This document shows, in pieces, positions 6,501-61,839 of a stretch of 64,000 nt of DNA. The DNA lies in assembly GCF_902652985.1 (NCBI RefSeq), contig NC_047015.1:28520001-28584000 (forward strand), written 5' to 3'. Source of the stretch: Pecten maximus (lineage: Eukaryota). Under the pieces are notes generated by a model that was not told the origin of the DNA, ran no database searches, and saw nothing but the letters and a program-made list of their open reading frames with translations. Positions within the stretch are counted from its first letter, which is position 1; every line of letters starts with the position of its first letter. Position numbers and translations under genes: made by a program.

Positions 6501-9500
6501 ATAACTAGGCACCAAGGGGAACCTACATATGAAATTTGAGAAAGATCCCTTCAGTACTTTCTCAGAAATAGCGATAACAATCTTCAATTGTCAAAATCCA
6601 AGATGGCTGCCTGTCGGCCATTTTGTTTTCCGATTGGTCTCAAATCGCAATATGCATAACTAGGCACCAAGGGGAACCTACATATGAAATTTGAGAAAGA
6701 TCCCTTCAGTACTTTCTCAGAAATAGCGATAACAAACTTCAATTGTCAAAATCCAAGATGGCTGCCTGTCGGCCATGTTGTTATCCGATAGGTCTCAAAA
6801 CGCAATATGCATAACTAGGCACCAAGGGGAACCTTCATATGAAATTTGAGAAAGATCCATTCAGTACTTTCTCAGAAATAGCGATAACAAACTTCAATTG
6901 TCAAAATCCAGGATGGCTGCCTGTCGGCCATGTTGTTATCCGATTGGTCTCAAAACGCAATATGCATAACTAGGCACCAAGGGGAACCTTCATATTAAAT
7001 TTGAGAAAGATCCCTTCAGTACTTTCTCAGAAATAGCGATAACAAACTTCAATTGTCAAAATCCAAGATGGCTGCCTGTCGGCCATGTTGTTATCCGATT
7101 GGTCTCAAAACGCAATATGCATAACTAAGTACCAAGGGGAACCTTCATGTGAAATTTGAGAAAAATCCCTTCAGTACTTTCTCAGAAATAGCGATAACAA
7201 ACTTCAATTGTCAAAATCCAAGATGGCAGCCTGTCGGCCATTTTGTTTTCTGATTGGTCTCAAAACGCAATATGCATAACTAGGCACCAAGGGGAACCTA
7301 CATATGAAATTTGAGAAAGATCCCTTCAGTACTTTCTGAGAAATAGCGATAACAAGAATTGTTTACGGACGGAGGGACGGAGGGACGGACGGACGGAGGG
7401 ACGGACGGACGGACGGACCACGGACCACGGACGCAGGGCGATTTGAACAGCCCACCATCTGATGATGGTGGGCTAAAAATACTAACTATGCTTTATACTT
7501 AAGATTCAGGAGCAGATTCTATCAGTCAATATGATACTTAATGTTTATGTCAGCTATAAGTTTCATTGGCATCAATTCAAAATAGTTAATAATATCGTTC
7601 TGACATGAAATTTTAACCAAGGGCAATTCCTCTGTAAATATGGGGTTTTGAGCCCTATATCAAGTATGCTGTACATTGTCTTAGCGTAACTGATATCCAC
7701 AGCAAGTTTCGTGATCCTTTCTTAACTGTGAGCAAAGTTATGCTTCAGACACGCAACAAAGGGCAATAAATCTGTGAACAAGCATACTGAGTACTGCTTT
7801 ACCATATCTATCCCCTACCATGCTAGCTATAACGGTTATTTACAAGGGTGTGAAATTTGATGAAATTCGTTAAAGAAATGAAGCAGCTACAGTGGTGACA
7901 CTGAATATTCCAAATTAAGTAAGTGACCTTAACCTTCAATAAACAACCTTGAAACTCAAGCTTGTCCGAGATATTGCCTGTGTGAAGTTTGATCAAAACC
8001 CCTGAAGGAATGAAGACGCTAAAGCACCGAAAAGGATTTGATCGTGACCTTGACCCAACAAACCTGAAACTTGATCTTGTCTTAGATATCATGGTCCTTT
8101 ATAATTGTGTGAAGTTTGATAAAAAAAAATGCATCAAAGAATGAAGCCGCTAGGGTGCTGACAAAGCATTTTCTAAAACTAGTAACATGACCTTGACCTT
8201 GCAACCCTGAAATTAAACTTCTCTAGAGAAATTATGGTTCTTTAAAACTGTGTAAGTTTGATCAAAATCTCTCAAGGAATGAAGCTGCTAGAGTGTTGAC
8301 AAACTTTGATGTTACATACATTGTACAAGAGGGACCAAGAGGAAAACTGTAGCCACTGGTAGGGGACTAACAAGGGCTTACAGGCCATGAATTTGGTACA
8401 CTTCACATTATCTTATAATGACCAATGTATACACAAAATTACATTATCCTAGTTTAAATGCAATAAATGTTATGCTCCAGAAACTCAATTTTAACAAATG
8501 GCAATAATTCTGTAAATAAGGGGATGTAGGTCTTGAATCTAGTACATCGCCTTTGTGTAACTAATGTACACACCAAGTTCAATGATCTTGTTCAAATGTG
8601 GGGAAAGTTATGCTTCAGACATGAAAACGACAGAAGTAAAGACTGATGGATTGACAAAGCACCAACTATATGCTCCCACAAACATTTTCAAGAAGCAAAG
8701 TAATAACAAACACAAACTACTGAAAAAAAAGAAACTTACAATGATTATAACTATCCTATACTTGTCACATACCTCAATAAATTCTTCACTCCCTTCTTGA
8801 GAGCGTGCTGACATAGTTTTCACATCTGATATTGCAGACCTTGCAGACTTTCCATTTGCCTGTGCATCTCGATCTACATTATTGTCTTTCAGTGTATTAC
8901 CAAAACTTTTTGTAGGAGATTTCTTTCTTCCAATATTGGCCTTTGCAGGTGTCTTTGTAATTTTGCCACTTGCTTGTAAATATGATATTTCTGCCTCTGC
9001 TTTCTGTTTCACTTCATCTCTCTTTTCTTCCCTCTTCTTTTGTAATTCCTAAACAAACAATTTAGAATCATAGTTCTAGTATTAATATTCCAACGATCAT
9101 CATGTTTACCAAAAGACTTTCAGTTACACTACATAAACTGTGGCAGAGCTTTAAAATTCACCTAAGACATACAATAATTGTAGAAACAAGCAGTACAAAC
9201 CAGGACAACAATACCTAATCATTTTAACATTTTACCTGAATTGCCTGCTGCCGTGCCTGTTTTGCTTTGTCATCCCTAATCTTCCTTCTTTCCTCAATTT
9301 TCCTATCTTCTTCATCCAGAAAGTCCAGATCTAATTTGTGTTCTTCAATGTCTTTTTTCTTCTTCCCTAAAAGTCTTTTGATCGCTGCTTCTCCCGCCAT
9401 TTGCACAGCCTCATTCCTTTTCCTCCTTACACAAATTTTGCGGTACCACCTTTGTATTTTGATTGCTGCAGATGTCAATGTTTGTACATACTCCTCTGTT

Positions 9501-12500
9501 GAACTTACAAATCTATGATTGGCTAAGCCTTCCTTAACCTGATTCACTGGTGTTTTGTGCTTTATGTTCTGATAGGAATTCTCTATACTTGACAAAGAAG
9601 CTTTTGTCCTTGGTGATTTCACAGATGTAACCATATTGTTTGCTATACCATTTACTCCATTCATATGATTGACAGCAGAATCAGTGGTATTCACACGAGA
9701 TGGTCTTGTTTTCTCCTTAGGCTTTTTGTTCTTAAAACTATCAGATTTTGCTGCATGAGACTTACGCTGAAGTGACTGTATTTTATTCAGACTTGATGAC
9801 AGTATACCGCCATCATCTGAGTCTGAGCTACTGTGAATACTACTCGGCTGAAAGAAGTTCTGTTGCATGGTAGGTGACAAGAGACCACTGCCACCATTGT
9901 TGACCCTCTGGGTGGAGTTGGTACTTCTCTGGCTATCTAGCTCACCCTTATGAGGCTATACAAAACAAAAAATAAAATGGTATTATAATCAGGGCTTTTT
10001 CTCACTGGTTTGGGATGTGGCCTTTTTGTCTCATGTTGGGAAGAAAATTGGTGAATTGGAACGATTTCTTCAGTAAACTGCAAATTTTGGGCATTTGGCT
10101 TTAAAATGAAATAATTCCAATTGGGAATGGGGCCCATTAATGGCCCCAAGAAGCCCTCAGAAAAAGCCCTGATTCCATATTTGTTGCCATTGAAAATGGC
10201 ATGAATATAAATACACAGTGAATATTTATACATACAAATAGAATTGTTTACAGCCGAATATTTATATACAAGGCATGTGTGCACGATATTTAGGTCTGAG
10301 TGGTACTAACCAGGAAATATTAAACCAGTGAAAATTTACAACTATAAGGTACTTTTAAATGTTGCTATAACAGAATGCTGCACTATGACATAAGAGCTCT
10401 TGGCCAGGTGAGCTTCTCTATCTGTAAATCAATTAAGTGTCTTCATCTTACTATAATGTCTCTTTTGTAAATATGAAACTTACTGCTTCTTGCCAGAGAA
10501 CTTTGACTGCATTTGGTGAAGGCTGCTTTTGCTTTGATGCTGATTTTATCTTGGGCTGCATGGATGTCTCAAACAGAGCCAAGAAATCCTCCCTTGAAAA
10601 AGTTAAAGAAGGGAAAGTGTGAAATACATGATTGAGAGTGTAAAAATATCAACAAAATTTAAATAACAAGAGGCCAAGAGGGACAACTATCATCTGGACA
10701 TTTAACCAATCATTACAGAAGAGTATTGTCAAAAGTAATATTGCAAGATTTACTTTAAGGGTGTGATAACTAATCCTGATAGCATGACAATAAATATACA
10801 AAATAAATGTACATGGTTACTGTATAGCACAAGTCTAAATTTTAACCTAAAGACAAGTTCTAATCTAATGGATTACATGTATCATCATCATTCATGAGTA
10901 TCTATCTCTTTATATTTTGTATATCTATCCATACAGGTTGAGGATCTCGGCCATTTATGTGTTATGACCCATAGATACATGTATTAATTCTCTTCATCAT
11001 TATACACTTATTGGAGAACCGAGATCCCAACAATTTCCGTGTTATTACCCAGGGACCAAGTTCCTGAGAGTTGAGGAGAAGCGAGAGATCTCTCCTGATG
11101 TACATCCCTATTTGTACCTTACTACCACACAATTCTAAGGCTGTAATCATATACTGGATTTAATCTACAGGGTTAAGATCAGAACCAAGACAAAAGTATG
11201 ATTGTACTCATATCTTCATGGCCAGCATCTGTGACTATGAACTGTGATAAAAAGTATGCAAATAATTATTGAGACAAGATCTCAAAACTTTTACAATGGT
11301 CATTCTGGTCCTTGTACAGTAGTAGTGATTATGACAGTATTAACTCTTTTACGAAAACGGAAACATGTTTTCAACATAAATCACTATATTCATGTCTAAT
11401 TCAATCCAGAAGACATACCCTGGTGACTTGCCCTTCTTGCTGCTGGCTCTACTCACTGCAGACACAGCACTCTTTTGACTTCTGTCACTCAAGTTGGGTG
11501 CTGCAATAAATGTGAAAAGAATGCACACCTTATACTAAATATAAAGTATAAGAATTTTGAGTTTACAGACTTTTTCTCCAATTCTATCATAAACAAGAGA
11601 TCCCAGAGTGATCTTGGCACCCACCCTTGAATGATCTTTTTCAATCGGATGAAAGACTGATCTTTTCTCTACTTTTTTCTTCTTTCCCCCTCCTTGATCA
11701 TATGGGAAACCTGCATATGAAGTCTTAGAAAGATCTAAAACAAACTTTCATGTATGCCTTATGGAAAGAGATATAACATTCAGAACACTATTTTAGGAGG
11801 AAACAAAAAGAATATCTGATGAGTAGGTTTAGTCATATATATATATTTTATGAGGACCTGCAAGCATTTTGCGTACGGCAAGAATGACATGTGTCACATT
11901 AAGCGTCGTTCGAGTTATCACCCCTTATAATCAGAAGACATGGCGGCTCAGGTAAAAAGTCTATTGTCAAACTATGGCAACCGTCCGCAATAATGTTTTG
12001 GAAATGGTCCTAAAATAAAGTATGCACAACTAGGGACCAAGGGGAAGCTATAAATGTTATTTCAGAAAGATCCCTTTAGTACATTCTGAAAAATGTTGTT
12101 AACAAACTTCAAGTGTCAATATTCAAGATGGTTGCCTGCCGGCAAAGTTGTTTTATTTTTCCCCAAATAGAATGTGCACAATTAGGGATCACCGGGAACC
12201 TACAGATGAAATTTTAGAAAGATTTTTCTATTTCTGAGAAATAGCAATAATAAACTACAAATGTCGAAATCCATGATGGCTGTCGGTCAACCATATTGTT
12301 TTTTTATCAGACCCAAAATAGAATATGCACAACTACGGACCAAGGGGAACATGCATAATGAATTCCAGAAAGATTCTTTCATTGTTTTTTGAGAAATAGT
12401 GGTTAAAATCTTCAATTGTCAAAATCCAAGATGGCTGCCTGTTAGCCATGTTGCTTTTCAATCGTTTCCAAAATGGAATATGAACAGCTAGGTACCAAAG

Positions 12501-17664: not shown

Positions 17665-37533
<19,869 letters not shown>

Positions 37534-39603
37534 ATGAAGTGTGACAATGGAATTCTTAGAGTTCTATTTCATGAATGATTCAGTTTCCGTGGATCTGCTA
37601 CAACTGCCAATCATGAGTGATCTGACGGGACGAGTGAGAGGATGAAGTGTGAATGGTGCTAAGTGAAGAGTTCATTTGTTGATTTCAACCTTCATGTATG
37701 TTCAACTGTAGTGATCTATCAATATGAAAGTGTTGTTTGCCCATTACCTCCCAAAGTGACAGATGACATGCAGTAGCATGTTGCAGGACATGATGACAAC
37801 AGCCATGTAGGCTGTTAGTCTTGGCAGCATATTGTGATACACTGTATATTGTACTTTATGAGGCAGGAACCTCTTAGTCTACCTGATCTCGCTTACTTCT
37901 AGGGAGGGTAAAATGCAATCTTATCATACTCGATTATTGTGGTCATTTTTGATAGTTGATGGAATGTTGAAATCTTCACATCACATTTATCTAGAGTGTT
38001 TGTAATAATTTGTTTCCTAGTTTGAGACTGTGTAGGTGATTGAGTCTAAATGACTTTGTGCTCCATTTGGCTGTTAATGTTTTTATCATTTCAATCGTTG
38101 TTTGAGATATGTGGCAGCTTCGAAAAGAATCTCATATTGCATTACAACCTGGATTAATTACAAAAACTATTCTACAGCTTCTCAAACCTTGCTTTGATAC
38201 TAAATTATTTTATATAATTGAATATCAGAACTTCTATATACGACTATTTCAAAGCTAATATTTCAGTATTTTTATTTTATTACCCTCATTTGTATGGTAC
38301 TGCAGACAACATGGTAATTTTGACATCACAATCTTGATGTTTTATTTACTAAATTGTCCAAACCAAAGTGCACTTGCCTGTCATATTTGTACAGTTGATG
38401 GCTTGTTCCTGACCTGACATCCGTTATGTCCTTGTTTGTCAGGTTTGGACCAACACCACCATGGTAGTTGTAACGATACTCATCCTTTACTGATATTTAT
38501 TGACATTGGAAGCCTCTGTAAGATATGTGCCAAACCTTGATTGCCGAGAATCCTGTCTGTAAGTAGAAATCTAGTCATGACAGATAATCTGCTACACATA
38601 TCAAAACAGAATTCCTGGGCCTACTACTATACTGTAGTATACATCCCACCTGATATCACAGTATTCACATGTACTATGTACATAGCATTACATGTATTGG
38701 ACACCTAATCAATACGTTTGTGCACTGTTTGTTTCATTCAATATGCCATTTCGTTATTTAAAGATTTGCTGCTGTTGACCTGTGATCTAATAAGATTCAG
38801 AAGTGATTGATATCTGTAGCCTTAAGATGTGTATTCCAACTCCTGGTTCATATTTCAAACAGAACTTTAGTCTTTAATTAACAACAGAAAATAAGTGATA
38901 GGATTTAATTGCAGTATTGCTGTTGTTTTTATGTTAAATATCACAATCTTTCAAATTTCAACTATCCAAGTTCAATCATCAAAATTTGAAGAAGAAAAAA
39001 AGAAAAGGGACAAACATTGGGGATATGTTTCTGTGAAGAAAAACAACTTTGATTGCTTACAACTGCATGGAAATTAGACTTAAATGCACAATGCCATCAT
39101 TGCTTTTGCATATTGGAGTTGTAATAAGAGTTGGTGATACAATCAGCATTGTCAGATATACTGGAGTCCTTTGGTATGTTGCCTTTGTGCGTGATGTTAT
39201 AGAATCAGGGCTGTATGAATGTGATATATGTATCACAGACTAGCCTGGGTCCCTGTCTAGTGACTATTTACAATCCAGAGCCTCTTGTGTGGTACTTAGG
39301 TGGTATTCATTGATCGGCTGTGATGTACTGAAATATGGTTGATAGCACTGAGATTATTTTCAGTTGTTAAACAGATTTTGTTTTGTCTCAGAAGTGCTGC
39401 AATATTAAATCTGTTGTGTTAAATATTTTAGAACTGTCACATTCATTTACTTCATAGATGTATAGAACAATTATATTGTGGACCAATGGTCTTTCCCTGT
39501 AGATACAGGCCTGTGTGTAAGAATTTTTATGTTGTTTGTGTGAGACTGTAACTTTTTTGTGTCTGTGCGAGTGAAGACTTATGTAGGTGCAATCCATAAT
39601 AAA
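37534..39603 (+). other. Probable long CNOT3 3' UTR with candidate AATAAA at 39598-39603
   Basis: Repeat-free T/G-rich sequence after the TAA; AATAAA followed by GT/T-rich sequence. The true end is uncertain. Confidence 0.45.
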
Positions 39604-43744: not shown

Positions 43745-46590
43745 GCAGGTATAGATATAACTAGACATCGGTCGTCTGGAAATACAATATAAGATCCAAG
43801 GTACCAGACTAACACTCGGTCGTCTGAAAATATCAAATAAGATCTTAGATACCAGGTATAGACTAACACTCGGTCGCCTGAAATATAATATAAGAACTTA
43901 GATACCAGGTATAGACTAACACTCGGTCGCCTGAAATATAATATAAGAACTTAGATACCAGGTATAGGCTAACACTCGGTCGTCTGGAAATATAATATAA
44001 GAACTTAGGTACCAGGTATAGACTGACACTCGGTCGTCTGAAATATAATATAAGGTCCTAGGCACCAGGTATAGACTAGCACTCGGTCGTCTGAAATATA
44101 ATATAAGATCTTAGGTACCAGGTATACACTAACACTCGGTCGTCTGAAATATATAATATAAGATCTTAGTTACCAGGTATAGACTAACATTCGGTCGTCT
44201 GAAAATATAATATAAGAACTTAGGTACCAGGTATAGACTAGCACTCGGTCGTCTGAAATATAAAATAAGATCTTAGGTACCAGGTATAGACTGACACTCG
44301 GTCGTCTGAAATATAATATAAGATCTTAGGTACCAGGTATAGACTGACACTCGGTCGTCTGGAAATATAATATAAGATCTTAGGTACCAGGTATAGACTG
44401 GCACTCGGTCGTCTGAAAATATAATATAAGAACTTAGGTACCAGGTATAGACTAGCACTCGGTCGTCTGAAATATAATATAAGATCTTAGGTACCAGGTA
44501 TAGACTAGCACTCGGTCGTCTGAAAATATAATATAAGAACTTAGGTACCGGGTATAGACTAACACTCGGTCGTCTGAAAATATAATATAAGATCCTAGGT
44601 ACCAGGTATAGACTAACACTCGGTCATCTGAAATATAATATAAGATCTTAGGTACCAGGTATAGACTAACACTCGGTCGTCTGAAATATAATATAAGATC
44701 TTAGGTACCAGGTATAGACTAACACTCGGTCGTCTGAAAATATAATATAAGATCTTAGGTACCAGGTATAGACTAACACTCGGTCGTCTGAAATATAATA
44801 TAAGATCTTAGGTACCAGGTATAGACTAACACTCGGTCGTCTGAAAATATGATGTAAGATCCTAGGTACCAGGTATAGACAAACACTCGGTCGTCTGAAA
44901 TATGATATAAGATCCTAGGTACCGGGTATAGACTAACACTCGGTCGTCTGAAATATATAATATAAGATCCTAGGTACCAGGTATAGACTAACACTCGGTC
45001 GTCTGAAATATAATATAAGATCTTAGGTACCAGGTATAGACAAACACTCGGTCGTCTGAAATATGATATAAGAACTTAGGTACCAGGTATAGACTAGCAC
45101 TCGGTCGTCTGAAATATAATATAAGATCCTAGGTACCGGGTATAGACTAACACTCGGTCGTCTGAAATATATAATATAAGATCCTAGGTACCGGGTATAG
45201 ACTAACACTCGGTCGTCTGAAATATAATATAAGATCCTAGGTACCGGGTATAGACTAACACTCGGTCGTCTGAAATATATAATATAAGATCCTAGGTACC
45301 AGGTATAGACAAACACTCGGTCGTCTGAAAATATAATATAATGTCCTAGATACCAGGTATAGACTAACACTCGGTCATCTGAAATATATAATATAAGATC
45401 CTAGGTACCAGGTATAGACTAACACTCGGTCATCTGAAATATAATATAAGATCTTAGGTACCAGGTATAGACTAACACTCGGTCATCTGAAATATATAAT
45501 ATAAGATCCTAGGTACCAGGTATAGACTAACACTCGGTCATCTGAAATATAATATAAGATCCTAGGTACCGGGTATAGACTAACACTCGGTCGTCTGAAA
45601 TATAATATAAGATCTTAGGTACCGGGTATAGACTAACACTCGGTCATCTGAAATATAATATAAGATCTTGGGTACCAGGTATAGACAAACACTCGGTCGT
45701 CTGAAATATAATATAATGTCCTAGATACCAGGTATAGACTAACACTCGGTCGTCTGAAAATATGATATAAGATCTTAGTTACCAGGTATAGACTAACACT
45801 CGGTCGTCTGAAAATATGATATAAGATCCTAGGTACCAGGTATAGACTAACACTCGGTCGTCTGAAAATATAATATAAGAACTTAGGTACCAGGTATAGA
45901 CTAACACTCGGTCGTCTAAAATATAATATAAGATCTTAGGTACCAGGTATAGACTAGCACTCGGTCGTCTGAAAATATAATATAAGATCCTAGGTACCGG
46001 GTATAGACAAACACTCGGTCGTCTGAAATATAATATAAGAACCTAGGTACCAGGTGTATATAGACAAACACTTTGTCGTCCGAAAATATAATATAAGATC
46101 CTAGGTACCAGGTATAGACAAACACTCTGTCGTCCGAAAATATAATATAAGATCCTAGGTACCAGGTATAGACAAACACTCGGTCGTCTGAAATATAATA
46201 TAAGATCCTAGGTACCAGGTATAGACTAACACTCGGTCGTCTGAAAAATATAATATAAGATCCTAAGTACCAGGTATAGACAAACACTCGGTCGTCTGAA
46301 ATATAATATAAGATCCTAGGTACCAGGTATAGACTAACACTCGGTCGTCTGAAAAATATAATATAAGATCCTAAGTACCAGGTATAGACAAACACTCTGT
46401 CGTCCGAAAATATAATATAAGATCCTAGGTACCAGGTATAGACAAACACTCGGTCGTCTGAAATATAATATAAGATCCTAGGTACCAGGTATAGACTAAC
46501 ACTCGGTCGTCTGAAAAATATAATATAAGATCCTAAGTACCAGGTATAGACTAGCACTCGGTCGTCTGAAAATATACGATCCTAGGACAT
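43745..46590. repeat. 53-55-bp minisatellite (GGTACCAGGTATAGACTAACACTCGGTCGTCTGAAATATAATATAAGATCTTA)n, about 52 copies
   Basis: Direct inspection; GGTACC at 44651, 44704, 44758. Confidence 0.97.
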
Positions 46591-47878: not shown

Positions 47879-49813
47879 GATTGATATGTAATTGTGAGCC
47901 TTATATTGAAGGATATGAATTTTGCCGGACATATTGTATAACTTTTCAACATAATCCCCTTCAGTATCTATACTGTTTTTATACCACTTTTATAGAACTC
48001 ATTTCATTGGCTGTTCAGAAAGTCATTCCCTGTAGGTTAGGGTTAGAGTTAGGGTGCCTGAAATAGCCGTTTTCAGTTTTGGAAATAGATGCAAGTCTGA
48101 TGGAGCAAGATCAAGTGAATAAGGCGAATGCTCAATCAATTTAAGCCACAATCGTGAATGAAATGACAGACACTTTCACCCTTACTCTAACTCTAATTGA
48201 TTTTGTCCATTTTGCAAAAGCCGCTTGTCTTGTGTAAATTAACCAAATGAGACCAGTCCTTGGGTACACGGCCCAATATAGTCGGATAATAGTATAAAAG
48301 AACATCCTTGAGTACCTCCTTCAATACGAGGCTCTTATCCATCAGTCCTCGTAAGGTGTTGTGAATACAAAGACTTTTTCATTTTAGCAGCCAACTCCCT
48401 ATCCAATGCGTCTCGTTCTGATGTTAACATATGGGCCATCGGATTGCATTGAGACAGGCTGTTAATATTTTCCTCCTCCTCCTCCATCTTCTTAATTCTT
48501 CAAAGAAACAAAGATCACATATGACGTCTCCAATATGGATAGGTTCATTATCATCTATTTCTTGGTTGAAAATCTAATCAGGATTCAAATGTTTTGACCG
48601 TTGGTGCGGTAACCACGGCATCGGGAAGTGATTGTCAATCCGCTCGCTTAACGAATATTTACTAAGGTTCAGTCTGCTCTCCGTTTTATAATGTCATGGT
48701 ATACCCTCTTGTTCTTTTGTTTGTATTTTGTGTTAAAAATCTCTCTGTGATAACTTAATCATATCCTCCGTGTGTTAATTTATATACTTTGATAATATCT
48801 CCCCTAGCCTTAGATATGTTTCAGTGTAGGTAATTTAAGAACCTTCAGTCTATTTTTGTAGCTTAGATCCAACATTGCTGGTATTTGTTTCGTTGCTCTT
48901 CTTTGGACGTTTTCTTATTCATTTATAATACTGCAAATACGGGTTCCAAATACAAGCCCCATATTCAAATGAGGCCTTACAAGCTTCCTTTTCTTTATTG
49001 GGCTTCGCCCCTTGATGCGAAGTTTGATCCCCTTCCCCAAAGATCGAAGCTGCTGAACAAATTTGAATGACAGGATTTGGTCTACCTGTAGTTTGAACCA
49101 GTGTTCGCATGGAGAGGCAGCTCGAAAGAAGGAACATATTTGTTATTTAGTGAGCGATGCAGGCCACCTCATGTTGCAAAGTGGGACATTTATTTTTTAA
49201 GTTTTTAAGACATGTGAATGATCGCAGTTTTATTCCCAAATCGCTTGTAGGTGCCTATCACGTAATTCTGTAAGACGTAACTATACAGTTTAGATTATCC
49301 TACCCATTGAAAAAATAGAGTTATAAAAAGCACTAAAAGGTTGTAAAAATAAATACGTTGTAAAGGTATAAGGTGTCTCAATACTTTCAATTTCAATTTT
49401 CAATACGTTGCCTGTGTCTGTAGGCCTAGTCTATCTAGATAATTTGAGCTTTACTCAAAGTATATAGGGGCCTGTTCGTTTATGCGGACAAACCGGTTCT
49501 TCGGTTTAATAATAATAATAATAATAAAACTTTATTTCACGAGGGTTACATATTTAGTACAGTACTAATCTTACATATGGCCCTCACATAAAACATGAAG
49601 AAAACAAAAAACATTCATTTTGACAGCAATACAAACATCGTAACTATTTGTCAATATTTCCTTCACACATTCACTCACTCACACAAACACGTCTAATTAA
49701 AAATCAAAACATATTAACAATTATTTGTTAATCATTTACAAAAATACTAGAGCGACAGTAGCATGTGGAATGTTGAAAATATACCTAGTTTGATCATGTA
49801 AATAAATTAAAAA

Positions 49814-52800
49814 TCAATTTGTTAGATACATTGTTAAAAAGTGTTTTTTAACGTTCTTTTTGAAGACAAATAGTGATGTCACAGTTTTTAAACTAGTTGG
49901 TAAGTTGTTCCATAGCTTAACTCCATTATAATGAAGGGATTTTTTGAACAGCTCAGTGTGTGCTCTAGGTAAGATTAAGTTATTTTGTGTTGTTGATCTT
50001 AACCCATAATGATACATTTCATTGCAAGAAGTAAAACAAGTTTTCAAGTATTCTGGTGCCATATTATTTAATGACCTATACACTAGCACACATGTGTGGT
50101 ACATAATTCTATATTCAAAGGGAAGAGTATCGGTATCATTAAACAGCTCTTTGCTTGGAGTCATTGTTGCCTTTTTTTAAATAATCCTAAGTGCTCGTTT
50201 TTGAATTTTAGTAATTGCAGTGATTTGTTCCCGAGTTAGGCCATTCCCCCAAACAACAGCAGCATAGTCCATTATTGGGAGAATATATGCATTGTAGTAC
50301 ACTTTTTTGGCATCGGTATTTAAATATGTAGACATCCTACGAAGCAAAGCAACTGCCGAGGCTAGCTTTGATAACACTTGTTTTACCTGATCTACCCAAG
50401 TAAGGTTTTCATTTATATATACACCCAAAAGCTTTTGACAGGATGTAGAATGTATTTCTTCATCATCTGCATACAATACCATGGGATTATGACCACCCAA
50501 CTTTTGTTTACTGGCAATTAACATAGATTTAGTTTTTCGTTGATTTAGTTTCATGTTATTATTTGTACACCATTTCACAATTTGGTTCAAATTTTCTTGA
50601 AGTTGACAGGTAACACTAGTATAGTCATTGCCCTTTACATGCATGGTACTGTCATCTGCATACATATCTATTTGACAATTTTTCACATATAGCGGCATAT
50701 CATTAACATAAATTATAAACAATAAAGGACCAAGTATCGATCCTTGTGGAACTCCTGATTTTATGAATTCCGGTGTTGAGGAGATATTCCTAAACTGAAC
50801 TTTTTGAACTCTATCACATAAGTATGATGCAAGCCAACTAATACTTGATGAAGAAATATTTAAGCTTTTTAACTTGTGAAGAAGTATGTTATGATCTACC
50901 AAGTCAAAAGCCTTCCTAAAATCTATAAAGATTGCTCCTACCATTTCATTTTTATCTATGCAGTCAATCCATCTATCGATCAAATAGGCTAGGGCTGTCT
51001 GACATGAATGTTTTGCCCTGAACCCTGACTGTGCAGCATGTAAAAGTTTGTATTTTACCAGATATCTATAAAGATGAGTAATAACATGCTTTTCAAATAC
51101 TTTGAGAAAGTTGGTAATATAGATATAGGCCTATAATTGTCAAGATTGTCTTTTTCACCACCTTTATGCAATGGCGTCACTCTTGCTTCTTTAAGAAACG
51201 ATGGAAAACAAGATTTTGATATGCTTAAATTTATGATGTGACTTGAATAGGGGGAAATAACACGGTTACATAATTTTATAACCCTTGGACCTATTCCATC
51301 AATACCCGTTGATTTTGTTTCATCAAGCGTCCTTATATACGTTTCAACTTCCTCCAATTTTATGTAAGGAATACAGAACGGATTCTGAGTGGATATCAGC
51401 CTTGATGCATGTTCTTCCATTTTTATATGATCATTAGAATCAAATTCCTTCTTTTCAACTAGATTTGAGACATTTACAAATTCGGCATTTATTTTGTCAA
51501 TAATCTCTTGGTGATCAGAAATGATCACACCATTATCGCACTTCAGTTGATTTGGAATATGGTTATGCTTCTGACATTTAGACATATCTTTCAGATGATT
51601 CCACAATAATGCACTAGGCTTATTTTTAATGATTGCATTTTTAAACAGTTCTTTTTTGGATTTTAAAATCAGCGCACTAGTGCGGTTTCTCCAATATTCA
51701 TAACTCTCCCAGTTCTTTGCTTTATGATAACTATCCCTTAACCTTCGAGCTTTTGATATCTCTTCATTGTACCATTCAGGTTGTTTACTTCTTTTTACCC
51801 TCTTTGATTTAAATGGGGCATGTTTATCTAACAGATGTAACATTATTTCATAAAGGCAGGCTAGTGCCTCATCTGGATCAGTTTTGTTCAATATATTTAC
51901 TAAATAAGAGTTTTTAACATCCGATATGAAGTCTTCTTCTACAAACTTTTTAAAACATCTATATTTGATAAAATCATGTTGAGACTTACATTTTCTTTCT
52001 CCACCATTAGAATTCTGATGTACTGTTATACATACAGGATAATGATCACTTATGGTAATACATGGTACATGGACAGTAGAAATGAGATCAGTATTATTCA
52101 CATAAACATGATCAATAATGGTTGATGACGTACTAGTGACTCTTGTTGGTTTAGTAACTAATTGAGTTAAACACTGAGAGGCTATGAAATCAGACCATTT
52201 TGAGTTTGTATTTCCTCTTGATATGTCAATGTTAAAATCACCCATTAACATAATGTCAAGACTTTCATTCATCGCTTGTTCAACCATTTTTTCAAATGTC
52301 TCTATCCATGCAACATTGACACTAGGCGGTCGATATACAAAACAAACAAGGAATTTCTTTTGATGAGGTATATCCACCAAAATCCAAATGCATTCTATAT
52401 CTGTTACCTCTAAATCCGCCCTTCTCCTGTATAATAAAACGTTATTAATATAAACCAATACACCACCACCATTTTGATTAAATCTGTCTCTTCTTTCAAC
52501 ATTAAAACCATCAATTGCAACCAAATTATCGCTCACTTGCTCATTTAAGAAAGTTTCACATAAGCCAAGTATATTAAGAGTATTTTCTTGATTTAAAAGT
52601 AAAATTACTTCGTCTATTTTTGGTAACAGATGTTGAATGTTCCAGCTACCAATATGAAGACCTTTACTTGGAAGACAAAAATCAGAATTAATTGTTGGAG
52701 AAGACGAGATATTTGATTTTTCAAGTTTGGTGTTGATATAATCCGTTAATTTTTTCAGGTGTACAATATCATCATATAAATATTGCGATTTTTCTTTTTC

Positions 52801-53064
52801 TAATTGTTTGGAATAGCTATTTTTCTTCTCAAAAATTACATTATCCTTCCTTTGAGTTAAACAGAGGTTCGTATTTTCTGGACAAGAATTATTTTTAAAA
52901 GTGTGGTTACAATGATGGTTACCACAAGCTAATAGTTTACTAGTTTTATTACACCCACAATCACACAGTTTCTCTAAAACTTGGTAATAATTATAAAATG
53001 AGTTATTTAAAATATCAGAGTTTCTGAAAACGCCTTGCGTTTCGTTGCTACTGTCTGCTCTTCC
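49814..53064 (-). pseudogene. LINE ORF2 (APE endonuclease plus reverse transcriptase), two frameshifts
   Basis: GLHIGSWNIQHL, LGLCETFL, GGGVLVYI, YRPP, GDFNID, IIDHVY, SDHYPV (EN); NYRPISILP, QSGFR, DFRKAFDLVDH, GVPQGSILGPLLF, YADDS, KLLGV (RT). Single-base indels in A-runs near 51102 and 50175. Confidence 0.93.
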
Positions 53065-54782
53065 CTAGTAGTTGTGATTTCGGTGTCGGCGGTACATAGG
53101 TCCAGATCCCGCAGCCCTTTCATGACTTTGTCTCCATGGTGATCCAGCAGAGTGTTTTCTCCGAGGAGTGATTAACACTCTGTTTTTGTTTCCGTGACTC
53201 GGTGTGGAGTCTCTTTTTCTCGCGGATCCGCCAACATTGTTTACAGTGGGTTTGAGGTCGGTATCACTTTATGAATGCATTTTAAAAGTTGTGACGTACC
53301 TGCATTGGTTAAATGAACCTTATCCTTGTGTAGATACATTGTCACAATCTCTCCATTTCCGTCGTGGAAAGCTGCAGAACAGTCCACAAAATTACATCCT
53401 TTACGGACGGCCATTTCTTTTATAATTCTGTTATAGAATTCAGTATCTACATCTTTTCTAGGGCATAGACCACACACGGACACATTTTCTGATAAGACAC
53501 GCCTTGTTGTACTTATGAGCTCTTCATAGTTTTCTTGGAATTTAGAAATATTTTCTCCGTCAGCAGCATCGTTTCCACCAACAAACAGAACTACGTTAGA
53601 GTAATATTAGATCTTTAATTCTTGCCCCCCTGTTTGTATCAACATCACAATTGTTTATGCCTCTCGGGTTTATTCCTTTCAATATTGAACTTCCCAACAG
53701 CAGAGTTCTTTCTAGAAATTCTTGCGGAGGGTTGACGGGCAGTTCTGGTGCAGCTAGTAAAGATTCCTCGGGCGTGATGACATTTGACAATTTACATTTT
53801 TGTGGCGAATTGACATCCGTTTGTAATCTGGACTGTTGTTTTTTAACAACATCGGCTATCCTTTGGAGCCTATTTTCAAGCTTACTTGTGATACTTTGGA
53901 CATTGTCATTGATGTTGTTACTCATTTCTTCAACAGCGTCAGCCACATGCATCTCACTTACCTTTACATTTGATTTTATACTGCATATCTTATCTTTGAG
54001 TTGCTCAAACTGGCGATTTGTTTGTACAACATGATTATTTAATGAAATTTCAATTAATTTGACACATCTGAGAATGTCTTCAAGGAAACTTTTGATATCT
54101 GGATCATCTGTGATTGTAACGTCAGAATCTGTATCGTCAGACTCGAGGGCTGTCTTTACCGGAGAAACACTACTGATAACCTGATCCTCGGTCTCCGTTT
54201 GCAGTGTACTTTCCAACGGGTTGTCCTCATTACTTTGAGATGAAATTTTCTTTTTGGATACATGGGTCTCATTTGTGGATTCATTGCGGGAAGTTGCAGA
54301 TAGTAGATCTAGCGATTGCTTCAGGGAGTCGTTGATTTTCTCACAACTTAGGCTAGTCCTGTTTTACTTAGTCCAACCTCCATTTTATGTAGAATATTTT
54401 TGAAATCGACATTCATAAATCGCTCAACATCTTTGCCATTGATTAGACATCTACAGCTAGTATGGTATAAATTCAATGTGTACACGGCTTTATTACGGCC
54501 TTTCGTAATGCGGAAACGTGCCTCGATTTCATTTCCACTTTTGTCCGATATTAGCGTCAGTTTGCATTTGTAGTTCTCAAGTTCAGAAGTGAAATCATCA
54601 CCATCAAAATAATCCTTGATCGTATTTCTCATCACTTCATATGTACCCGTGTTTAGTGATATAACTACTCCTCCTTTGGTATTGTTTATACAAATGTCGG
54701 ACCTATTAGCGGCTTCAAGTTTCTTATCAAGGGACTTTTCCATGTTAATACTAAAATCACGGGAATCATTATCTATGTCCAA
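53065..54782 (-). pseudogene. LINE ORF1 (coiled-coil plus SGNH/GDSL esterase), frameshifted
   Basis: SGNH blocks LLLGSSILKG, RGARIKD, VVLFVGGND (alternate frame at about 53590), CGLCPR, DKVHLT; frame breaks near 54360, 53605 and 53258; basic tail ending ...YRRHRNHNY-TAG (53067-53065). Confidence 0.85.
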
Positions 54783-54929
54783 TTGATTATCTAATTTTTA
54801 AATGTAACATTTCAAACATATATATATCTTTACTGACCTGTGTATCTAAATACAGGCCTTGGAAGTCTTTGTCAAGGCTCGTCTGAAAACAATATAAAAT
54901 CACCATATCCTTCTTTATTTCATAAACGA

Positions 54930-60564: not shown

Positions 60565-61190
60565 GGGGCCGCGGTGGCCGGGTGGTTTTGGTGTCCCGAC
60601 ACTTTATCACTACTAGCCCTTCACCTCTGGTGGGGCTGTGATGGCTGAGTGGTTAAGGTGTCCCGACACTTTATCACTACTAGCCCTTCACCTCTGGTGG
60701 GGCTGCGATGGCTGAGTGGTTAAGGTGTCCCGACACTTTATCACTACTAGCCCTTCACCTCTGGTGGGGCTGTGATGGCTGAGTGGTTAAGGTGTCCCCA
60801 CACTTTATCACTACTAGCCCTTCACCTCTGGTGGGGCTGCGATGGCTGAGTGGTTAAGGTGTCCCGACACTTTATCACTACTAGCCCTTCACCTCTGGTG
60901 GGGCTGTGATGGCTGAGTGGTTAAGGTGTCCCGACACTTTATCAGTACTAGCCCTTCACCTCTGGTGGGGCCGCAGTGGCTTAGTGGTTTTGGTGTCCCG
61001 ACACTTTATCACTACTAGCCCTTCACCTCTGGGTTGTGAGTTTGAAACCCACGTGGGGCAGTTGCCTGGTACTGACCGTAGGCTGGTGGTTTTTCTCCAG
61101 GTTCTCCAGCTTTCCTCCACCTCCAAAACGTGGCACATACTTAAATGACCCTGGCTGTTAAGAGGATGTTGCACAAAATAAACCCAAATC
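60565..61190 (+). mobile_element. tRNA-derived SINE (same family as 32536) with seven tandem 67-bp heads
   Basis: Heads at 60565, 60632, 60699, 60766, 60833, 60900, 60967, then one B box, core and tail; TSD TGCAAAAGT at 60556-60564 and 61191-61199. Confidence 0.92.
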
Positions 61191-61839
61191 TGCAAAAGTA
61201 AAGAAGGCAGCATTTGTGTATCGGGGCTTACTTGTGGATGAATAATCTCTTGTAAATTTTGTGTGTCACAATTTTCCCAATACAAGTTTGCAATTTGAAT
61301 ACTCATTAAAAGTATGAAACATATCTCTTTATGTTGATGAATATATCTTGCAAATAATATGGAATGCCAAAGTGTCAAATGATACATATAATGCTTGAGA
61401 GAAGCAGATTTTTTTACCTTAAGGGTAAAAATCCTTTTTGGCATTGTGGTTTTTTTTACCTTTGGTGTAGATAAATATGATCCCGTCTCATAATGGCAAA
61501 CAAATATTTACCTTGAAGTAAAAACATTTTTGCCATTATGTACATATTGGCAAGATTTTTTTACCTTAGAGTAAATAAATTGTACGTAATGGCAAGTAAA
61601 AGTATCTACATTAAGGGAAAAAATGTTTGCCATAATAAATAATGTTTTCTCATATACATGTACATGTATACCCAAAATGTTAATGTGACTGATGTTACTT
61701 TCTTACTTAATGGTAGAAGATTTGACCTTATGGGCAATTATTTTGCCATTATGGAAAAACAGCATTTTTATTGCCACTTAAGGTCAATTTATTTAACCAA
61801 AAGGGCAAAAGATTTGCCCTTAATGTTAAATCTTACAAT

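Follow-up and report, generated by a model that had tools for sequence, protein, structure and literature searches.

How can a retroelement make its enzyme when the frame that encodes it has no AUG ahead of the first catalytic domain? This question is raised by a long interspersed nuclear element (LINE) in the genome of Pecten maximus, within a stretch of 64,000 nucleotides (nt) of contig NC_047015.1 (positions 28,520,001 to 28,584,000), referred to here as the window. On its minus strand, the two open reading frames of the element (ORF1 and ORF2) lie in the same frame and are separated by a single TAG. A preliminary description, made from the letters alone, had proposed that the family crosses this stop with a readthrough signal of the gammaretroviral gag-pol type. 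We confirmed that the in-frame, AUG-less ORF1-ORF2 junction is real, found the same layout in a diverged sister family and weighed the ways in which ORF2 could be translated from it. The family of the window element is called A and its sister B.

The ORF1-ORF2 junction of family A

One minus-strand frame is open for 67 codons from 53268 to the end of ORF1 (...MYRRHRNHNY), meets the TAG at 53067-53065 and stays open for another 669 codons, as had been described. The claim that ORF2 has no AUG before its endonuclease (EN) domain also held: the first in-frame ATG is codon 260 (52287-52285) and falls inside the Pfam EN match. Of the ATGs listed around the stops of families A and B, none of those located between stop and EN start belongs to the ORF2 frame, and no AUG of that frame overlaps or adjoins the ORF1 stop in the manner of SART1. 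The EN motifs located 5' of the first AUG, on which the argument of the preliminary description depended, are intact and conserved, and therefore this part of the frame must presumably be translated. The linker between stop and EN has no stops in the ORF2 frame versus 8 and 22 in the other two, and since an open frame was obtained in none of 3,000 dinucleotide shuffles (mean of 10.3 stops), it is coding. The absence of ATG from the linker is weak evidence when taken alone (P of ~0.09). At 52992-52975 the linker has an N-x-[FY]-x-x-L motif with a Cys-rich stretch after it, an arrangement also found in relatives.

Joining the ORF1 esterase to its tail had seemed to require the correction of a 1-nt frameshift near 53258. 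That caveat is settled, given that the three other genomic copies all carry one base more near 53257 and 35 bases more near 53604, both missing from the window copy, which brings the esterase, its tail, the TAG and ORF2 into a common frame. A search of the genome with a 351-nt junction query provided four matches including the window, all of them full length over the query, and the TAG is kept in all four. It is thus a family feature and not a private nonsense mutation, the outcome that would have undone the proposal. Along similar lines, the TAG was unchanged in DNA contigs of three studies (runs X1, X2, and X5), one of which is possibly the assembly's own sample. Family A copies are 95 to 99% identical, with ORF2 frames of up to 835 codons, and all the junction-bearing copies examined carry lesions elsewhere.

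The stop itself has the position expected for the end of an ORF1. In copy L035, which reaches further 5' than the window copy and has the ORF1 ATG, ORF1 measures 1,784 nt from ATG to TAG (~595 codons). The ORF1 esterase domain has a profile match to PDB entry 4c1b, "ORF1-encoded protein" (E value of 3e-14). Because 149 of the 150 best esterase relatives in a profile search are without an ORF2 domain, a stop after ORF1 is, as judged from these relatives, the norm, and the element is a two-ORF element rather than a single ORF with a nonsense change. Most of the 150 have a C-terminal zinc knuckle or a basic tail. The one exception, P0135, combines esterase and ORF2 parts in a low-quality partial gene model and was left uncounted. 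Word-based protein searches using esterase plus tail had given no match; it was the profile search that found the relatives.

Some side observations concern ORF1 and individual copies. Among the esterase relatives (P0121-P0270), many invertebrate-type LINE ORF1s join the esterase to C-terminal CCHC knuckles; PMC4120745, in the part available, describes esterase ORF1s as found only in vertebrate L2 and CR1 subgroups. Locus L075 (G000:C1, ~47.82 Mb) holds a 474-amino-acid (aa) esterase ORF1 of the same clade with no ORF2 within 6 kb downstream and is possibly a solo ORF1. The family A copy L037 (G000:C6, ~40.92 Mb) has lost 2.3 kb from its interior, with the linker and the ORF2 end remaining in frame with each other, and RNA contigs of run X6 carry its junctions, which are uninformative on mechanism. 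At L035:3188 (~52913 of the window), contigs of two studies (runs X7 and X9) join the linker to identical foreign sequence. Since no acceptor AG precedes this site in the window copy, the joint may represent a 5'-truncated copy within a host transcript.

Sister family B, controls and ORF2 relatives

Family B consists of two independent decayed loci, L039 and L041. Its amino acid identity to family A is 52% in EN and 51% in the reverse transcriptase (RT), four-fold sites are 23 to 43% identical and, by this measure, silent sites are near saturation. Tail and linker provided only short alignments (21 to 24% identity). In spite of this divergence, ORF1 of family B ends in Tyr-TAG, the frame runs on through the linker into EN, and no ATG occurs before codon 106, which is beyond the first EN strand. 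When the families are anchored at the stop, they have in common the pattern TAY-TAG-N7-CAGACAGT, including an 8-nt run at the same distance from the stop. The stop-anchored diagonal has 15/24 matches, a value attained in a fraction of 6e-4 of 223,746 window pairs; the window width was our own choice, and the P values are approximate. By these comparisons, the in-frame, AUG-less ORF1-ORF2 junction is conserved across two diverged L2-type families. A candidate third B copy, C1075, was dropped, as it aligns with L039 including the flanks at 70% and was taken as an error-rich duplicate. L039 (G000:C716) sits inside a Gypsy-like long terminal repeat element with protease-, RT- and RNase H-like frames, recognized by eye.

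The preliminary description had named the TAG, the missing AUG, a +4 G/GGA context and a downstream structure as the features to compare across copies and families. The first two are kept in A and B, and the last two are not. The base at +4 is G in three of the four family A copies and A in the other, and C in both sister loci; after the stop, A and B conserve the 8-nt run (+8 to +15) rather than the +4 context. The stem that had been pointed out does exist at 53043-53027, but it lies 21 nt past the stop and is no stabler than shuffles. Folding of the sequence 3' of the stop was likewise unexceptional (z scores versus shuffles of -0.5 to +0.35 for A and -0.7 to -0.05 for B). For a pseudoknot ~8 nt past the stop, family A offered only 5-bp stems with at most two G-C pairs, starting at +1 to +16, and no GC-rich stem was found near the 8-nt spacer position. 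With the +4 G not kept, no significant fold and no strong pseudoknot, a gammaretroviral-type gag-pol signal is not supported. Of the readthrough classes I to III as given in PMC3159437, type I (UAG-CAA-UYA) and type II (UGA-CGG/CUA) signals are also unmatched by UAG-GGA-AGA in A and UAG-CAU-AAG in B.

Is a missing AUG common among LINEs of this genome? In distant families, a Met precedes the EN motif in 32 of 33 loci, which makes its absence in family A unusual, although the 33 loci are copies of fewer families and are not independent. Of 146 matches to the Pfam SGNH profile, 40 were fetched, and those viewed were other element types. As a side observation from the same genome, loci L095, L128, L130, and L131 have an L1-sized ORF2 downstream of ~500-aa ORFs at SGNH matches. 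A genome-wide search with the junction pattern gave 285 matches, mostly tandem repeats among the 100 listed, and the nine singleton loci checked had no convincing ORF1 or ORF2 profile match (one marginal, E value of 0.04). Scans of metagenome, viral and prokaryote collections for the junction returned nothing or unrelated loci, plasmid and phage searches gave no match, and a published bivalve LINE library, covered for 377,213 characters of a 4.1-MB file with sequence lines cut at ~400 letters, contained five motif matches, none of them a junction by eye.

We considered 120 of 498 ORF2 relatives. A pre-EN extension (median of 73 aa) was present in 95 of the 120, and 19 were called from the EN motif or later. 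The N-x-[FY]-x-x-L motif, present in A and B, occurred in 18 of the 95 extensions (6.75 in shuffles) and, standing in otherwise unalignable sequence, is possibly a binding motif. Judged by the longest call, the called ORF2 begins 12 residues ahead of the motif in four clusters (in one of them with Lys in place of Asn), matching the position of the family B stop, 7 to 18 residues ahead of it in five others and within it in two. However, comparisons among members of 21 clusters showed that the initial M of one call frequently corresponds to Val or Leu in a longer protein. The collection renders GTG and TTG starts as M, and therefore start codons are unreadable from these proteins. One relative, P0279 (cluster of P0089), has an esterase C-terminus that runs stop-free into an intact full ORF2. 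It is without the usual ORF1 tail, and a tail of 30 aa or less was found in only 6 of 138 relatives.

How ORF2 could be translated

Our tentative preference, to which we give somewhat less than an even chance, is that the ORF2 enzyme is made by occasional readthrough of the TAG as an ORF1-ORF2 fusion. Most ribosomes would stop at the TAG and release the ORF1 protein (ORF1p, ~595 aa), and a small fraction would insert an amino acid there and continue, producing a fusion of ~1,680 residues. Human L1 has been estimated to make about one ORF2 protein (ORF2p) per RNA versus up to ~240 ORF1p (PMC4091050). If the need for ORF2p is as low here, a leak well below 1% might suffice, and a strong viral-type stimulator would be unnecessary. 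While the stop is read, the run at +8 to +15 would be positioned close to the mRNA entry channel of the ribosome, and it may tune the leak. A single assumption, readthrough, would account for the common frame, for its being open all the way from the stop and for the missing AUG. A more specific version, which we regard as rather doubtful, is that an animal L2-type sub-lineage lost its ORF2 AUG and switched to programmed UAG readthrough, yielding an esterase-EN-RT fusion like retroviral Gag-Pol. In that version, the 3' signal would be CAGACAGU at +8 to +15, outside the three standard classes. P0279 may be a natural fusion or a case of a lost stop, and it lends weak support to the idea that a fusion frame can exist.

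A credible alternative, ranked close behind, is AUG-independent termination-reinitiation as proposed for mammalian L1, where ribosomes would restart a few codons downstream of the stop and make a free ORF2p. The restart could use a near-cognate or arbitrary codon (for instance, ACG at codon 9 in A, and ATA at codon 8 or ATT at codon 10 in B), and the common frame and the 8-nt run would then be what remains of a stop-start junction after the loss of its AUG. As far as is known, natural L1s retain their ORF2 AUG, which counts against this explanation, as does the fact that reinitiation makes no demand for a common frame or for openness as far back as the stop, two properties found in A and L041. 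Several observations nevertheless weigh against readthrough, and some of them suit reinitiation directly. L1 ORF2 translation is reported to be AUG-independent, needing an upstream ORF rather than its own AUG (PMC4091050, PMC11485995, PMC5009743, and PMC5972666, in the parts available). No known leaky context surrounds the stop, which reads UAG-GGA in A (UAG-AGA in one copy) and UAG-CAU in B; reinitiation needs no such context, nor the structure that was also not found. In L039, another in-frame TAG follows two codons past the stop and would be no obstacle to a restart at codons 8 to 10. L041 has AAG at that codon, and either state may be ancestral. The called ORF2 starts of relatives cluster 12 to 18 residues ahead of the conserved motif, which hints at a start site beside the ORF1 stop and so at reinitiation as the ancestral design, although the called Ms, for the reason given above, are not usable as evidence of AUGs. 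A quick tree groups families A and B as sisters (support of 99), and hence the shared frame counts as one inherited event, not two. In L131, an L1-sized LINE, both ORFs are also in one frame, yet there is a further stop plus an own Met, and therefore a shared frame alone is not diagnostic. Finally, P0279, without the usual ORF1 tail, may be a deletion product.

Translation of ORF2 from a spliced RNA, with an AUG-bearing upstream exon and an acceptor at or just past the stop, or by internal initiation deeper in the linker, appears improbable. The TAG itself fits the acceptor consensus YAG, and pyrimidine-rich AG sites follow the stop at ~40 nt in A and at ~57 nt in B, but relative to the conserved motif, the candidate acceptors of the two families are on opposite sides. 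No joint was seen in the contigs of four runs of RNA or likely RNA, although none of these contigs bridged the stop, no spliced copy was present among the four genomic matches, all spanning the query, and L037, the only copy with an internal deletion, has its breakpoint at a short microhomology and not at GT-AG. Even less probable, and largely refuted, is that the junction is non-functional and that the TAG or the missing AUG is a decay mutation copied by the machinery of another element. The lesions found in every junction-bearing copy examined would fit decay, as would P0279, a relative with a stop-free esterase-ORF2 frame. Against this stand the near-universal stop after ORF1 among esterase relatives, the high identity and long ORF2 frames of family A and the same layout in family B. 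Moreover, a closer family with an AUG that might have served as donor was not found in the genome, where three other close families are 5' truncated short of the junction.

The element, its family and known systems

The window element is a broken copy of a young CR1-group LINE family with an esterase ORF1. The copy is 5' truncated inside the first codons of ORF1 and has several lesions: a TAG at 54350-54348 interrupts the N-terminal part of ORF1, 1 nt is missing near 51103, in the RT domain, and there is a stop at 50179-50177. The ORF2 frame spans 3,248 nt and ends at 49816-49814. The (TTA)n at 49527-49507 indicates a 3' tail made of a short tandem repeat rather than poly(A). Elsewhere in the window, minus-strand stop-free frames of 120 to 243 codons without a Pfam match were found at 8608-10305, 45023-46581, 37063-37563, and 60956-61507.

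Features of the element and of its ORF1-ORF2 junction (window positions)
Feature	Position	Strand	Basis
LINE copy, family A	49507..54792	-	BLAST versus copy L035 covers 54792-49507, 97.6% identity
ORF1 N-terminal part, no Pfam match	53716..54792	-	matches profile of ORF1 relatives (tested on L035)
ORF1 SGNH esterase domain	53250..53715	-	Pfam PF13472, E 1e-12
Basic ORF1 tail ending ...RRHRNHNY	53068..53257	-	sequence
ORF1 stop TAG, in ORF2 frame	53065..53067	-	4/4 family A copies; both sister loci
8-nt run common to A and B, same stop distance (+8 to +15)	53050..53057	-	shuffle P ~7e-4
Small hairpin, not significant, no counterpart in sister family	53027..53043	-	folding versus shuffles
Linker, 138 codons, stop-free, ATG-free	52651..53064	-	sequence
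APE endonuclease (EN) domain	52042..52650	-	Pfam PF03372, residues 139-341 of ORF2 frame
Reverse transcriptase (RT) domain	50423..51115	-	Pfam PF00078
3' end: AATAAA then (TTA)n	49507..49536	-	sequence

Within the CR1 group, the family is likely L2-2. Its ORF2 combines APE and RT, its ORF1 is of type IV (esterase) and its 3' tail is a short repeat. An RT motif was common to relatives of the element and to the L2-2-labelled entries of PMC10294476 in all five cases looked up. The relative P0056 (40% identity) resembles an L2-2-labelled entry by eye. The bivalve L2-2 LINEs (Crack/Daphne/L2A/L2B) of that study resemble the element in APE plus RT, RT motif and short-repeat tail; the main text of PMC10294476 names ORF1 once and ORF2 never, and it does not discuss the junction. 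A literature search, with most subscription journals outside its scope, produced no report of such a junction in CR1-group LINEs.

Four known systems put the junction into perspective, each as described in the parts of the cited sources available. In Paramecium Group 3 LINEs, stop readthrough was inferred from sequence (Guerin et al. 2017, PMC5405496), as it would be in family A. These belong to a ciliate-specific clade with a zinc-finger ORF1, while here the element is of the animal CR1 group, with an esterase ORF1 and TAG. Mammalian LINE-1 is similar in having a bicistronic RNA, very low ORF2p and an ORF2 translation for which the AUG is dispensable (PMC4091050, PMC5972666, PMC5009743, and PMC11485995), but it has a 63-nt spacer and an AUG, and family A has neither before EN. 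The gammaretroviral type III gag-pol arrangement (PMC3159437) also places UAG between in-frame structural and polymerase genes, and UAG-G is found in 3/4 family A copies; the differences are the lack here of a compact pseudoknot 8 nt downstream and a sister family without the +4 G. In SART1, UAAUG stop-start coupling (PMC5972666 and PMC3708506) similarly ties ORF2 expression to the ORF1 stop, whereas here no AUG overlaps or adjoins the stop and the sequence beyond it has no significant structure.

The translation of LINE ORF2 is still called unresolved in reviews (PMC4091050 and PMC11485995, in the parts available). Studies of L1 removed the AUG artificially, whereas family A is naturally without it and has a short, defined junction; therefore, one reporter series could separate readthrough from AUG-independent reinitiation. 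If readthrough is true, family A would provide a Gag-Pol-like fusion in an animal LINE and possibly a stop-context signal of a new kind; if reinitiation is true, it would exemplify the L1-type mechanism in nature. Both outcomes would show that ORF finders truncate such ORF2s.

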